DNA of 64,000 bases from Actinomycetota bacterium (GTDB lineage: Bacteria > Actinomycetota > Actinomycetes > S36-B12): the NCBI GenBank assembly GCA_030645615.1, contig JAUSNB010000057.1, positions 12,384-76,383 of the forward strand, written 5' to 3'. A program made the position numbers and the translations under genes. Positions 6,547 through 22,532 of the stretch are shown one piece after another (position 1 is the stretch's first letter; every line of letters begins with the position of its first letter). The notes beneath the pieces are model-generated. The model searched no databases. It was not told the DNA's origin and saw nothing but the letters and a program-made list of their open reading frames with translations.

Positions 6547-7196
6547 CCGACACCCACCCGCACGACGACATCCCGCTCGAGCACCTCGTCGTGCTGCGGT
6601 CCTCCTCGGCCCTGCTGCAGCGGGAGTTCGAGGGCACGTTCGGCACCGAGACGATCGAGCGGTTCCTGCACTCGTCCTACGACGACTTCGGCGCCCGGCT
6701 GACGAACGACCGCTACCTCACCACCTTCGCCGAGCGGTTTGCCCGCGAGCGGCTCAACGCCTTGGCGCGGGTCGAGGGCAAGAGCGACGACGGGCGGCCG
6801 ATCGTGCTCTTCCTGTGCACCCACAACGCCGGTCGGTCGCAGATGGCCCTGGGCTTCTTCCGCGCGCTGGCCGGCGACCGCGCGCTCGCGTGGTCCGGCG
6901 GGTCGGAGCCCGGGAACCAGGTGAACCCGGCAGCGGTGGCCGCGATGGCCGAGCTGGGGATCGACATCTCCGGTGAGTACCCCAAGCCGTGGACCGACGA
7001 GATCGTCCGTGCGGCCGATGTCGTCGTGACCATGGGATGCGGCGATGCCTGCCCGGTGTTCCCGGGCAAGCGCTACGAGGACTGGGTCCTCACGGACCCG
7101 GCCGGGCTCGATGTCGATTCGGTGCGGCCGATCCGCGACGAGGTCAAGGCGCGCGTCGAGGATCTGCTGACCCGTCTGGACGTACCGGTCGGCTGA
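6543..7196 (+). CDS. arsC: Arsenate reductase, LMW-PTP / thioredoxin-coupled type, with an ~85-aa N-terminal helical extension
   Basis: P-loop LFLCTHNAGRS plus the resolving cysteine pair in VVTMGCGDACPVFPG...DWVLTDPA. The N-terminal ~85 aa has no phosphatase motifs. Confidence 0.85.
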   Translation: MTDTHPHDDIPLEHLVVLRSSSALLQREFEGTFGTETIERFLHSSYDDFGARLTNDRYLTTFAERFARERLNALARVEGKSDDGRPIVLFLCTHNAGRSQMALGFFRALAGDRALAWSGGSEPGNQVNPAAVAAMAELGIDISGEYPKPWTDEIVRAADVVVTMGCGDACPVFPGKRYEDWVLTDPAGLDVDSVRPIRDEVKARVEDLLTRLDVPVG

Positions 7197-7247
7197 GGAC
7201 TCGCGGCTCGTCACAAGGCCGCCAACCGGGATGGGCCGGACATGGAG

Positions 7248-20087: not shown

Positions 20088-20378
20088 ATGAGCGACGTCG
20101 CCCTCGAAGACCTGCCCTTCGACGATCTGCGCCAGCGCGCCTTCAAGGTTGCCGAGCGGCACATGGACGTCGGCTTCTTCACCGACCTCTTCTCGCACAT
20201 GCCGGGAATGTCGGCGATCGAAGGCGAGGGCGGCGACCTCGGCGCCGTCGGCGGGACGTTCATCGAGACGGTCCGGGCGGTGCGCGAGATGTTCGGCGGC
20301 GAGAACCTCGACGAGACGACCGAGGTGCTGCTGCGGGCCCGCTTCGTCACGTATTTGCGCGAGCACGGCGAGGAGTGA
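20088..20378 (+). CDS. Hypothetical acidic 96-aa protein
   Basis: An in-frame ATG 20088 inside ORF 19473..20378. The part from MSDVALEDLPFDD... has normal composition, unlike the R/G-rich upstream extension. No family recognised. Confidence 0.5.
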   Translation: MSDVALEDLPFDDLRQRAFKVAERHMDVGFFTDLFSHMPGMSAIEGEGGDLGAVGGTFIETVRAVREMFGGENLDETTEVLLRARFVTYLREHGEE

Positions 20379-20405
20379 GCGCAGCGAGCCCCAACACCGT
20401 TGAAC

Positions 20406-20453
20406 GGCCAGTCCTGGGGCCGATTCCACGAGGAATCGCCCCCACGACTGGCC
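20406..20453. terminator. Long imperfect hairpin between convergent genes
   Basis: GGCCAGTC-C-TGGGG-C-CGATTCC / loop ACGA / GGAATCG-C-CCCCA-C-GACTGGCC. This gives 20 bp paired with two C.C mismatches. Confidence 0.55.
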
Positions 20454-20467
20454 ACTCGGCATAGGGG

Positions 20468-21619
20468 CTAGCGGTCGATGTCGCCCACGACGAAGGTGAA
20501 CGACATGAGCGCGTCGGCCAGCCGGTCATACGGGACCCCGACCAGCGCCGGCACCATCGCCTGGGCATTGCCGAACGAGGCGGACCGCACCTTCAACCGC
20601 CACGGGGTCCGCTCCCCGGTGCTGACCAGCAGGCACCCCGTGATGCCGAGCGGACCTTCGACCCACGCATAGCCGGTCCCCTCCGGGACCCGGACCGACT
20701 TTGGCAGCAGCACGTCGACCGGTCCGTCTCCGAGGGCGTGCAGCCTGTCGGCGCAGGCACCCATGAGGGCGAGGCTCACCGGAATCTGCGCGGCGAGGAC
20801 GCGATACCGGGCCGCAGCATCCCCGGCCCGCTCGACCGGGACGACCAGCAGGTCGCCCAGTTCCGAGTAGGCCGCGTAGGGGTCGTCCCGGCGCAGGTCC
20901 CAGTCCAGGCCACTGGCTCGGGCGACCGACCCGCTGGCGCCGAGGTCGACTGCCTGCTCGCGGGTGAGCACGGCCAGGCCGGCGAGCCGTTCGGACAGGG
21001 CCTCCGCCACCTCGACCGCGCCCGCCGCAGCGGCGGCGAGCCCGGCCGAGACCCCGGTTGCGTGGCTGATGTCGGCACGGACCCAGGGCGCGGCCACCCC
21101 GCCGATGCGGGTGAACATCGGGTGCACGCGGGCACCGGTCAATCTTTCCTGTAGGGCGAGCAGTCGCTCCCGCCCGTCCTGCAGCAGGCGGCGCTGCCCG
21201 GGCTGCGGCGCAGCCGCCGCAAGGAATGCAAACGCGGCGGCGACCCGATTGGCCTCGGCCAGGAAGGTGCGCATCCAGGTGGCCCGCTCGGGCGGGGTGA
21301 TTCCCGTCGCGGCCTCGACGGCGAGGGCGATGACGAGCTCGGAGGAGAACGGCGACAGCCAGTCGTGCCGGTTGGCCAGCATCATCAACTGGCGGTAGTC
21401 GCGCGCCTCGAACAGCTTCTCCGAGCCGCGATGCATGAGCCCGACGCGCAGGTCGGCCGAGGCAACGCGACCTTCGCTCACGTCGACGGCGAGCTGGAAG
21501 CCCGGCTGGGCCGACGGATGCCCTTCCGCCAGGTCCAAGACGGCGTCGCACTCCAGGTAGCCGGCCACGCCCACGCCCAGGAGGAGCGATTGCGTCAGGG
21601 GAGCCACTGAACGAGCCAC
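20468..21619 (-). CDS. Stand-alone NuoD / NDUFS2 (49-kDa subunit)-like protein (start uncertain)
   Basis: Motifs RVGLMHRGSEKLFE, ...ANRHDWLSPF..., ITPPERATWMRTFLAEANR, RVHPMFTRIGGV, and a C-terminal ...FVVGDIDR like the NuoD MGDVDR end. No other nuo genes are nearby. Confidence 0.8.
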   Translation of the reverse strand: MARSVAPLTQSLLLGVGVAGYLECDAVLDLAEGHPSAQPGFQLAVDVSEGRVASADLRVGLMHRGSEKLFEARDYRQLMMLANRHDWLSPFSSELVIALAVEAATGITPPERATWMRTFLAEANRVAAAFAFLAAAAPQPGQRRLLQDGRERLLALQERLTGARVHPMFTRIGGVAAPWVRADISHATGVSAGLAAAAAGAVEVAEALSERLAGLAVLTREQAVDLGASGSVARASGLDWDLRRDDPYAAYSELGDLLVVPVERAGDAAARYRVLAAQIPVSLALMGACADRLHALGDGPVDVLLPKSVRVPEGTGYAWVEGPLGITGCLLVSTGERTPWRLKVRSASFGNAQAMVPALVGVPYDRLADALMSFTFVVGDIDR

Positions 21620-22497
21620 CAGAAGTCGTCGGGAGCCGGGGTCGGCTCAAGGCTAGTGGCCGTGGCTTCGACGGCCGCTGCGCACGCATCGAGGGCGACG
21701 TGGGCGGTGAGGTTGACCGACCCATCCAGGCGAGGACGGGTGACCCTGCCCCGGTGGTAGCCCACGAGGCTGCCGCCGTCCCATCGACCCGACGTCCGCG
21801 CGCGGCGATCGTGCGCATAGTCGATCGCGATCGCCAGGCCCGGCCGGACCAGCCGGCACATCGCCCACCAGGCGAGGTCCCGCAGCAGGCCGGCCTCGAT
21901 TCGGGCCGCGGGCTCACGTCGTGGCCACCAGCACTCGCACCACGCCGCGAGCGCGGGCCCGTCGACTCCAGCCTCCGCGCACGCCGCAGCGTCCGTGAGC
22001 AGGGGCCCGAGCCGCTCCTGCCCGTCGTCGTCTACGAGCAGCAGCCGCAAGCGACCCGCCTCGTCCGGCTCGACGATGTCGCAGGGGATGTCGTCGAGGA
22101 ACTCGTGCGCGATCACCAGCCCCGGAGCGGGTGCCAGGCCTGAGGCCGAGGCCATGGCCTCGCCGCGGATCCACTGGACCTGGGCATCCAGCCCGGTCGG
22201 CCTTTCAGCGAGGTCCAGGGCACGCCAGACGGTCCGTTCGGCAAGGTCCTTCGGCCACATCGCGATGAGTTGCTCGAGCAGGAGCCCGTCCGCCGCACCA
22301 GCATCGGTGACGGTGACGCACCCGTGCTCGTCCGCGAGGGGCCCGAGCACGGGGAGCGCGACGTCGGCGATGGACTGCGCGACCGCCGGGCCCTGCGTGA
22401 CCGCGGTGGCGAAGTGCTGCCTCGCCGGCTCGCGGGAGTAGAAGCCGTCGATCGCCGCCCGCCATGCGACGGACCAGGGTCGCGCGTGATCCGCCAC
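21595..22497 (-). CDS. SAM-dependent methyltransferase, MidA / NDUFAF7 (DUF185)-like
   Basis: 300 aa with the glycine-rich SAM pocket VTVTDAGAADGLLLEQL, then AHEFLDDIP and DYAH...G.L..Y elements typical of the family as I recall it. It sits directly upstream of, and overlaps, the NuoD-like gene. Confidence 0.65.
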   Translation of the reverse strand: MADHARPWSVAWRAAIDGFYSREPARQHFATAVTQGPAVAQSIADVALPVLGPLADEHGCVTVTDAGAADGLLLEQLIAMWPKDLAERTVWRALDLAERPTGLDAQVQWIRGEAMASASGLAPAPGLVIAHEFLDDIPCDIVEPDEAGRLRLLLVDDDGQERLGPLLTDAAACAEAGVDGPALAAWCECWWPRREPAARIEAGLLRDLAWWAMCRLVRPGLAIAIDYAHDRRARTSGRWDGGSLVGYHRGRVTRPRLDGSVNLTAHVALDACAAAVEATATSLEPTPAPDDFWWLVQWLP

Positions 22498-22532
22498 GGG
22501 CGATCACGCTAGTGCGGTCTAGGCTCCGTCGC

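Follow-up and report, generated by a model that had tools for sequence, protein, structure and literature searches.

Why should an actinobacterial genome carry a gene for a subunit of respiratory complex I apart from the other complex I genes, and why should that gene overlap with one for a methyltransferase? The question is raised by a 64,000-nucleotide (nt) stretch of DNA from an Actinomycetota bacterium of the lineage S36-B12 (assembly GCA_030645615.1, contig JAUSNB010000057.1, positions 12,384 to 76,383 of the forward strand), hereafter the window, to which all coordinates refer unless another locus is named. On its minus strand lie a gene for an S-adenosylmethionine (SAM)-dependent methyltransferase of the MidA/NDUFAF7 family (21595..22497; 300 amino acids (aa), GTG start) and, as the second gene of the same operon, a gene for a paralog of the complex I subunit NuoD/NDUFS2 (20468..21619; 383 aa), here called NuoD2. 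The answer that we consider probable is that the two genes form an operon in which NuoD2 is the D subunit of a second complex I lacking the NADH module, and in which the methyltransferase dimethylates Arg64 of NuoD2.

An earlier interpretation of the same DNA, made without database searches (the sequence-only reading), had taken the pair for a methyltransferase–substrate couple that works outside complex I. The first half of this proposal is supported by the conserved linkage of the two genes and by the Thr that canonical NuoD carries at the methylation position. The second half is disfavored by the orthology of the protein to streptomycete nuoD2, by a second nuo cluster with no D gene of its own, and by the complementary placement of arginine and threonine on the D and B subunits.

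The two genes and their products

Both open reading frames (ORFs) are present and co-oriented, as the sequence-only reading had described. The overlap between the methyltransferase stop and the NuoD2 start measures 25 nt (21595..21619, minus strand), or 13 nt if the alternative GTG at 21607 is the NuoD2 start, and it suggests translational coupling. The codon-position GC contents are 0.77/0.52/0.89 in both ORFs, indicating that both are genuine high-GC coding genes. No further nuo gene was detected in the 64-kb window by tblastn with all 13 E. coli Nuo subunits, in line with the isolation of the pair noted before.

The downstream product was confirmed to be NuoD-like. The 383-aa protein matches the Pfam family PF00346 (Complex1_49kDa) with an E-value of 9e-41 (140 bits against a cut-off of 24), and its best matches in the PDB are the NuoD/NDUFS2 D subunits of complex I (E = 5e-40). 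The AlphaFold (AF2) model of NuoD2 (predicted local distance difference test, pLDDT, 87; predicted template modeling score 0.89) has the fold of NuoD and the [NiFe]-hydrogenase large subunit, and Foldseek aligned it to NuoD/NDUFS2/NdhH with template modeling (TM) scores of 0.79–0.86. The equivalog cut-offs for NuoD (NCBIfam/TIGRFAM) were all missed, with scores of 228 against 360 for NF004739, 195 against 459 for TIGR01962, and 199 against 522 for NF008974. A segment of 34–46 residues of canonical NuoD is absent from three aligned paralogs, and the same gap occurs in the PDB alignment of the window protein.

The upstream product, previously proposed to be of the DUF185/MidA type, is a short and divergent member of the MidA/NDUFAF7 family by Pfam, profile, and fold. 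It matches PF02636 (Methyltransf_28/MidA) with 47.9 bits against a gathering cut-off of 23.3. As a single-sequence query it matched nothing in the PDB, while a 32-member family profile retrieved the COG1565/DUF185 structures 4f3n (5e-13) and 1zkd (3e-11) and Dictyostelium MidA 5ztz (6e-5). For its AlphaFold (AF2) model (pLDDT 91), the top six Foldseek matches were all COG1565/MidA (4f3n, 4g67, 5zu0, 5ztz, 1zkd; E-values 4e-13 to 1e-9), and the next methyltransferase class followed at 4e-5, five orders of magnitude behind. The TM scores to MidA structures were just 0.47–0.70, because the window methyltransferase is shorter by approximately 100 aa.

The motifs of the family, for which motif I (D/E-x-G-x-G-x-G), ANE(F/W)xDxxP, DYG, and D(L/I)TAHVDF served as references, can be located on the minus strand of the window gene. 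In the family alignment, the SAM-binding loop of motif I reads VTDAGAADG (residues 63–71; 22285..22311). Its outer glycines, G67 and G71, do not vary across the family; the middle Gly is replaced by Ala in the window clade but kept in most relatives. Alignment to 4f3n/1zkd placed the remaining matches at AHEFLDDIP (22084-22110), IDYAH (21811-21825), and the hallmark motif NLTAHVALD (residues 262–270; 21688..21714). MidA has been described as alpha-proteobacterial in origin, with a prokaryotic function "only inferred in silico" (PMC12455994), and within the family the one substrate to have been characterized is the arginine of the HRGxEK motif in a NuoD orthologue (PMC3829151, PMC3750175).

Residues at cluster N2 and at the quinone site

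NuoD2 carries this motif as HRGSEK (residues 63–68; 21416..21433, minus strand), with Arg64 at 21428-21430. In an alignment to Paracoccus and Drosophila NuoD, Arg64 falls on Arg-85 of bovine and human ...GLLHRGTEK, i.e., on the arginine that the sequence-only reading had named as the NDUFAF7 target (PMC3750175). Its equivalents are Arg-65 of P. denitrificans Nqo4 and R121 of Y. lipolytica (PMC3750175, PMC8042128). E. coli lacks the symmetric dimethylation that mammals, yeasts, and P. denitrificans show at this position (PMC3750175), and the arginine of HRGxEK lies 3.7 Å from the terminal iron–sulfur (Fe-S) cluster N2 and is required for the stability of N2 (PMC8042128). In the model of isolated NuoD2, the HRGSEKLFEA loop with Arg64 (residues 63–72; listed at 21428-21457) is the sole internal stretch with a pLDDT below 50. 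Such low confidence probably fits a segment that is ordered only against a partner, whether the B subunit of the second enzyme (NuoB2) or the methyltransferase, and that is flexible when isolated.

Residues R84 and His166 also face N2. R84 belongs to the signature RHDW (residues 84–87; 21359..21370, minus strand) and corresponds to R141 of Y. lipolytica in the second sphere of N2. His166 of RVHP (residues 164–167; 21119..21130, minus strand) corresponds in the alignment to the His beside N2 in canonical NuoD, which we take to be the redox-Bohr His (Thermus H169). Among 164 paralogs, Arg64 is invariant (164/164), R84 likewise (163–164/164), and His166 is present in 163, compared with 3 of 10 canonical representatives.

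The quinone site has been remodeled. Trp87 of RHDW replaces the quinone-ligand Tyr (Thermus Y87), and Gln38 (21506-21508) in the degenerate beta1-beta2 loop HPSAQPG (residues 34–40; 21500..21520, minus strand) replaces the quinone-ligand His (Thermus H38). The loss of both ligands, suggested by the sequence-only reading, thus holds for the window protein, but the two replacements differ in reach: Trp stands at the Tyr position in 164/164 paralogs, against Tyr in canonical NuoD, whereas the loss of His is lineage-specific and many relatives, including Streptomyces, retain it. The His, its acidic partner, and the loop of that partner are retained jointly in 19 of the 164 paralogs but in all ten canonical sequences (10/10). 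The window NuoD2 represents a more degenerate subtype, in which His is changed to Gln, Tyr to Trp, and the loop with the Asp partner (Thermus D139) is shortened. It is in this sense, and by its scores below the equivalog cut-offs, that the protein is not an ordinary complex I subunit, as had been supposed. Since the Tyr→Trp change is family-wide and the His and the Asp loop are also lost in the window lineage, the electron acceptor chemistry is probably not that of the canonical enzyme. At the same time, the N2-facing residues R64, R84, and H166 remain near-invariant while the quinone-site elements drift, which supports a complex I-type role.

NuoD2 as a paralog family

NuoD2 belongs to a large paralog family, all members of which carry [ND]RHDW and a C-terminal GD[IVL]D[RK], whereas canonical NuoD has DRxDY and GE[VI]DR. 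The window protein bears NRHDW, VGDIDR, and HRGSEK. It shares 45% identity over 380 aa, i.e., the full length, with a Streptomyces NuoD2 and 44% with the Microbispora and Nonomuraea proteins. The Streptomyces protein has RHDW, HRGAEK, and GDIDK and is encoded in the same pan/nad-fol interval as the window pair. Streptomycetes are known to possess a full nuoA-N set plus nuoA2, B2, and H2-N2 without an NADH module, with nuoD2 encoded apart (PMC8388888, PMC3765725), and the window protein is, judged from its sequence, an ortholog of this streptomycete nuoD2.

NuoD2 is near-universal in Streptomyces, where it is 88–97% conserved and always labeled plain "NADH-quinone oxidoreductase subunit D"; one member of the family bears the RefSeq/UniRef name "subunit D-related protein." Thousands of database entries under the plain name are NuoD2 paralogs. 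Taxon names also deserve caution, as lake and estuary contigs of metagenome-assembled genomes (MAGs) titled "Bifidobacterium breve" or "Rubrivirga sp." (our loci L025, L032, L034, L047, L057, L070, and L073) show the fol-NuoD2-methyltransferase-panC synteny of Nanopelagicales MAGs, and these names look wrong.

A literature search returned nothing on NuoD-like or NuoD-related paralogs of the NuoD2 kind or mentioning "SCO3392," and nothing on the function of nuoD2 or its pairing with a MidA-type gene. The sequence-only reading had been aware of no description of such a pair. For the methyltransferase–NuoD2 operon this agrees with our search, but the orphan nuoD2 is already annotated, and a link between NDUFAF7 and nuo genes has been noted once, in Ca. 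Actinomarina. The operon, the family-wide RHDW signature, and the exchange of the arginine between the D and B subunits are apparently undescribed, none having been found in the literature.

Linkage of the two genes

The association of the two genes was assessed in two sets: 74 NuoD2 loci with enough flank from species-representative genomes, and 66 methyltransferase loci from metagenomes. The methyltransferase gene lies directly upstream of NuoD2 and co-oriented with it in 53 of the 74 NuoD2 loci; the gap is approximately −30 to +40 nt in 50 of these 53 adjacent pairs and larger (90, 431, and approximately 1650 nt) in the other three. In the metagenomic set, an RHDW-type NuoD2 was found within approximately 4 kb in at least 46 of the 66 loci (a lower bound), the two genes being co-oriented, convergent, or interrupted by inserted genes. 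The co-occurrence in other genomes that the sequence-only reading had called for is therefore found. It spans Nanopelagicales-like MAGs to Streptomyces, Microbispora, and Nonomuraea, and the pair has stayed linked where inversions and insertions occurred and where it moved away from the fol genes. Because the linkage is conserved and survives such rearrangements, the pair looks like a methyltransferase–substrate couple, a relation that the genomic context supports.

Some loci deviate from this arrangement. In Thermobispora, no NuoD2 adjoins the methyltransferase gene at the site. Conversely, the complete MAG chromosome OZ257127.1 has no methyltransferase gene adjacent to NuoD2. Locus L009 shows no resemblance to the methyltransferase near NuoD2 except in one short inverted stretch (6841-7215, minus strand; 52% identity), possibly a decaying remnant, which agrees with a secondary loss of the gene in neighboring clades. 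A MidA-like paralog without a nearby NuoD2 occurs in Streptomyces armeniacus (CP031320.1; L085 10001-10966), in a transposase-rich polyketide synthase/nonribosomal peptide synthetase (PKS/NRPS) region near the chromosome end, and given this paralog the methyltransferase family may have acquired other substrates. A pair of genes for bPH_2 (PF03703) membrane proteins stands beside or between the methyltransferase and NuoD2 genes in 23 of 171 loci, mainly Streptomyces-like (e.g., L089 7526-9969, L170 12360-14191, and L171 8108-10038); it is absent from the window, and in some lineages it may act as a third member of the system.

Candidate Rosetta-stone fusions were rejected. The extra length of P0103, P0109, P0274, and other long family members comes from over-calling of ORFs that run antisense through DUF2520. 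P0316, a 291-aa metagenomic fragment in which a methyltransferase C-terminus (75% identity) runs into a NuoD2 N-terminus (72% identity), is likeliest a frameshift chimera across the gene overlap and not a true fusion.

A second nuo cluster without nuoD

The complete genome examined was the 11.85-Mb chromosome of Nonomuraea gerenzanensis (NZ_LT559118.1; L172-L175). A PLSDB record titled "Nonomuraea gerenzanensis plasmid I" carries fol, pan, and nuo operons with barely any annotation (10 features) and, despite its plasmid title, evidently represents the chromosome. The genome has a canonical nuoA-N operon that includes a nuoD, and NuoD2 lies in the pan-fol interval with the methyltransferase gene 4.3 kb upstream. 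A second cluster, nuo2, is located approximately 56 kb downstream of the canonical operon in the order A2, M48/HtpX-like peptidase, B2, C2, H2, three ORFs without Pfam match, I2, J2, K2, L2, M2, and N2. It contains no D, E, F, or G gene, and 188 nt separate the end of C2 from H2. The peptidase gene between nuoA2 and nuoB2 (L174 23701-25395) and the three no-Pfam ORFs between nuoH2 and nuoI2 (582, 134, and 371 aa; L174 27907-31262) are additional to the nuo genes. Upstream of the canonical operon, no nuo gene occurs within 50 kb.

Exactly two NuoD-like loci were detected in Nonomuraea, along with two NuoB-like, two NuoC-like, and three NuoH-like loci. Since nuo2 lacks a D gene and the genome has no other spare NuoD-like locus, the orphan NuoD2 is the only candidate for the D subunit of this 11-subunit-type enzyme. 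The sequence-only reading had counted as evidence against its own proposal the case that the gene is the only nuoD copy and serves a split nuo system. A split system is what we favor, while NuoD2 as the sole nuoD copy is ruled out for Nonomuraea by the canonical operon's own nuoD.

Arginine and threonine on the D and B subunits

In Thermus, the methylation position of NuoD is occupied by Thr, and the N2-facing arginine comes from Nqo6/NuoB (PMC8042128). The same arrangement was found in the canonical actinobacterial enzymes. Canonical NuoD reads (Y/F)LHTGIEK in all four sequences sampled, namely those of three genomic nuo operons (Nonomuraea, M. intracellulare, and Tsukamurella) and one solved structure (M. 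smegmatis, PDB 8e9g), and canonical NuoB reads IVAGRVSQKMAP (AGRV) in Nonomuraea, M. intracellulare, and Tsukamurella. The second set of Nonomuraea is reciprocal: NuoD2 has HRGAEK, and NuoB2 has IVSGTVTDKMAP (SGTV), as in E. coli NuoB, with all four cysteine ligands of N2 kept. Mitochondrial NuoB has the same Thr form as NuoB2. The target arginine is thus absent from the four canonical NuoDs, and among the NuoD-type proteins of one complete genome only NuoD2 has the NDUFAF7-type arginine. Because the Arg/Thr roles are reciprocal, NuoD2 most likely fits NuoB2 and not canonical NuoB.

This complementarity also bears on whether NuoD2 could be an inhibitor-insensitive D subunit, protective for instance against piericidin, that is swapped into the canonical 14-subunit complex I, with the methyltransferase serving assembly. 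The idea can draw on the canonical operon that NuoD2 genomes also have (Nonomuraea), on the strong resistance of Tyr→Trp mutants to rotenone and quinazoline inhibitors, and on the occurrence of the same change in the "NuoD" of piericidin-producing Streptomyces, where it was read as natural resistance (PMC4758237). We nevertheless regard a swap of this kind as very improbable: canonical NuoB already has an N2-facing Arg (AGRV), so pairing it with NuoD2 would place a second arginine in the same site, which is avoided with NuoB2 (SGTV), and the second cluster without a D gene needs a D subunit. Moreover, NuoD2 is not restricted to inhibitor producers, being near-universal in Streptomyces and present in Nanopelagicales-like MAGs, lineages that are not known to produce such inhibitors.

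Proposed mechanism and alternatives

We propose that the operon makes the methyltransferase and NuoD2 together and that the methyltransferase would dimethylate Arg64 before docking, by analogy with the action of NDUFAF7 on Arg-85 of NDUFS2. Methylated NuoD2 would then dock onto NuoB2 and complete the quinone (Q) module of a second enzyme of the 11-subunit type that lacks the NADH (N) module. The ten other subunits (from nuoA2, B2, C2, and H2-N2) would be supplied by a separate D-less cluster, which the genome of the window is predicted to carry elsewhere. In this second enzyme, the arginine near N2 would come from NuoD2 (Arg64) and the Thr would stand on NuoB2, the reverse of the canonical enzyme.

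Several observations weigh against this mechanism. On the side of the methyltransferase, 20 of the 74 NuoD2 loci, mostly of one clade, have no methyltransferase gene and yet keep Arg64. Methylation of Arg64 may therefore not be obligatory, or the gene may have moved in these genomes. The methyltransferase is also distant from characterized MidA proteins (13–21% identity, 300 versus approximately 400 aa, and the middle Gly of motif I replaced by Ala), and DNA methylation in E. coli has been reported for a MidA protein from Wolbachia (PMC12455994). On the side of NuoD2, a survey of 165 loci (1.8 Mb) found no nuo gene at a distance of up to 10 kb from NuoD2 or, in the metagenome loci, up to 6 kb from the methyltransferase, and the link to nuo2 thus rests on one complete genome together with the Streptomyces literature. 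Finally, the window NuoD2 has lost the His, the Asp loop, and the Tyr, and a role in a redox enzyme could be gone.

The points on the methyltransferase raise the alternative that it acts on another protein, a small molecule, or a nucleic acid, and that its adjacency to NuoD2 is inherited synteny in the pan-fol neighborhood. Besides the report on Wolbachia, such a view is favored by the loci without methyltransferase, in which no residue separating NuoD2 with and without the gene and no compensating change in NuoD2 was found, by the lone methyltransferase of Thermobispora, by the paralog in the S. armeniacus PKS region, and by the divergence of a subfamily whose substrate specificity is a prediction. 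It does not sit well with genes that stay together through inversions, insertions, and relocation and frequently overlap, which suggests translational coupling, nor with the fact that the only characterized substrate of the family is precisely this arginine of a NuoD orthologue (PMC3829151, PMC3750175), which is absent from the four canonical NuoDs and present only in NuoD2 in the complete genome. Another substrate is therefore judged improbable.

The points on NuoD2 lead to the view of the sequence-only reading that the couple stands outside any complex I-type assembly, with the NuoD scaffold recruited for a soluble methyl-arginine sensor, a regulator, or an assembly factor. That NuoD2 is always encoded apart from the other nuo genes would be expected in this case, and the degenerate quinone site of the window lineage (Gln38, deleted Asp loop, and Trp87), the scores below the NuoD equivalog cut-offs, the missing segment of 34–46 residues, and the database name "subunit D-related protein" are all compatible with it. 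However, the residues that face N2 and NuoB (R64, R84, and H166) are the most conserved of the protein (163–164/164), the Nonomuraea cluster lacks a D gene while its NuoB2 lacks exactly the arginine that NuoD2 offers, the streptomycete literature places nuoD2 in the nuo2 set, and in Ca. Actinomarina an NDUFAF7 gene lies in the neighborhood of an 11-subunit operon. A stand-alone couple is accordingly considered unlikely, though slightly less so than a substrate other than NuoD2.

For the window clade in particular, the loss of three quinone-site elements alongside the retention of the methylatable arginine patch leaves some room for a couple that does not reduce quinone. It may use another acceptor or form a non-redox module for assembly, gating, or regulation that depends on methyl-arginine, possibly without a nuo2 membrane partner. 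We hold this variant to be doubtful, albeit less so than a stand-alone couple in the family as a whole, and prefer the D subunit of a second complex I as the function of NuoD2.

Gene neighborhood in the window

The pair is inserted between the folate block and the DUF2520-panC block, as previously described. On one side lie folE, folP, folB, folK, DUF3180, and a 96-aa ORF, and on the other a Rossmann-like/DUF2520 gene, panC, nadB, and nadC. The 96-aa ORF (20088-20378, plus strand; MSDVALEDLPFDDLRQRAF...) is convergent to NuoD2 and has no Pfam match. An unannotated ORF of similar size occupies this position in L001, L002, and L088, and the 96-aa ORF is thus a conserved small protein between DUF3180 and NuoD2. 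The 89 nt that separate the 96-aa ORF from the NuoD2 gene hold a strong nested hairpin (20396..20460; −49.5 kcal/mol, z = −7.8, 0 of 200 shuffles equally stable), a probable bidirectional terminator without a T-tract at the end of the operon.

At the other end, a very short divergent intergenic region (22498..22532) between the methyltransferase start and the DUF2520-panC operon is presumed to be the promoter region. The start of DUF2520 is ambiguous, with GTG codons at 22512, 22533, or 22563. Taken mechanically, the longest DUF2520 ORF (plus strand) begins at 22464 and would run across the divergent start of the methyltransferase gene (22497), which makes the later GTGs more plausible. ORFs over-extended antisense across the DUF2520 gene also account for several "long" NuoD2 database entries. 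A scan for promoter and terminator consensus, including a sigma-70 consensus in 22498..22532, gave no match, a result that is uninformative and expected at 72% GC.

Significance

The conserved operon provides strong genomic-context evidence for a MidA–NuoD enzyme–substrate relation outside mitochondria and alpha-proteobacteria, in organisms whose canonical NuoD lacks the target arginine, and Streptomyces offers a genetically tractable system for this relation. A single cell would contain two solutions for N2, one with the arginine on NuoB in an unmethylatable context and the other with the arginine on NuoD2 and a dedicated methylase, a situation that could clarify the effect of arginine dimethylation on N2. 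The proposal also names the missing D subunit of a poorly understood EFG-less actinobacterial complex I, whose quinone site is systematically altered (Trp for Tyr).

Comparison with known systems

The closest known system is the streptomycete nuoD2/nuo2. The window protein is orthologous to streptomycete NuoD2, shares RHDW, HRGxEK, and GD(I/V)D(K/R), and is likewise encoded in the pan/nad-fol interval apart from nuo2. It differs in being more degenerate (His→Gln and a shortened loop without the acidic partner). In streptomycetes, the methyltransferase gene is co-oriented, convergent, or several kb off, whereas in the window it overlaps nuoD2 in a tight operon.

The action of NDUFAF7/MidA on NDUFS2 in human and Dictyostelium, and the symmetric dimethylarginine at Arg-65 of Paracoccus denitrificans Nqo4, involve the same methyltransferase family, the same target-protein family, and the same HRGxEK arginine (PMC3829151, PMC3750175, PMC9006661). 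The window methyltransferase belongs to an actinobacterial branch that is shorter (300 aa) and 13–21% identical, its gene is in an operon with that of its putative target, and its activity is a prediction. In the known cases the substrate is a canonical subunit, but in the window it is predicted to be a paralog whose quinone site carries Trp.

Downstream of the 11-subunit, EFG-less nuo operon of Ca. Actinomarina lie NDUFAF7, htpX, and pspE (bioRxiv 10.1101/2021.02.01.429150, PMC7771536). As in the system proposed here, an actinobacterial N-module-less complex I is linked to a PF02636 gene and an HtpX/M48 peptidase, and nuo2 of Nonomuraea also includes an M48 gene. The layouts differ: nuoD of Ca. 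Actinomarina is inside the operon and the methyltransferase gene comes after nuoN, while in the window type the D gene and the methyltransferase gene are split off as a pair.

Complex I of Thermus thermophilus and of mycobacteria shows the same Thr-on-NuoD, Arg-on-NuoB solution as the canonical enzyme of the genomes that carry NuoD2 (PMC8042128). NuoD2/NuoB2 have the opposite, mitochondrial-type arrangement, with Arg on D and Thr on B. Because the arginine sits on D just there, a MidA-type methylase would be relevant only to the second enzyme.

The Trp at the quinone-ligand Tyr position is shared with the Y144W/Y87W mutants, in which decylubiquinone reduction was strongly lowered and inhibitor resistance appeared (PMC4758237), and with the "Y87W in piericidin-producing Streptomyces" (Degli Esposti 2015). 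In that report the change was taken as rare and tied to inhibitor production, whereas here it is an invariant hallmark of ubiquitous paralogs (164/164). The observation of 2015 may have sampled a NuoD2 paralog, and it may need to be reinterpreted.

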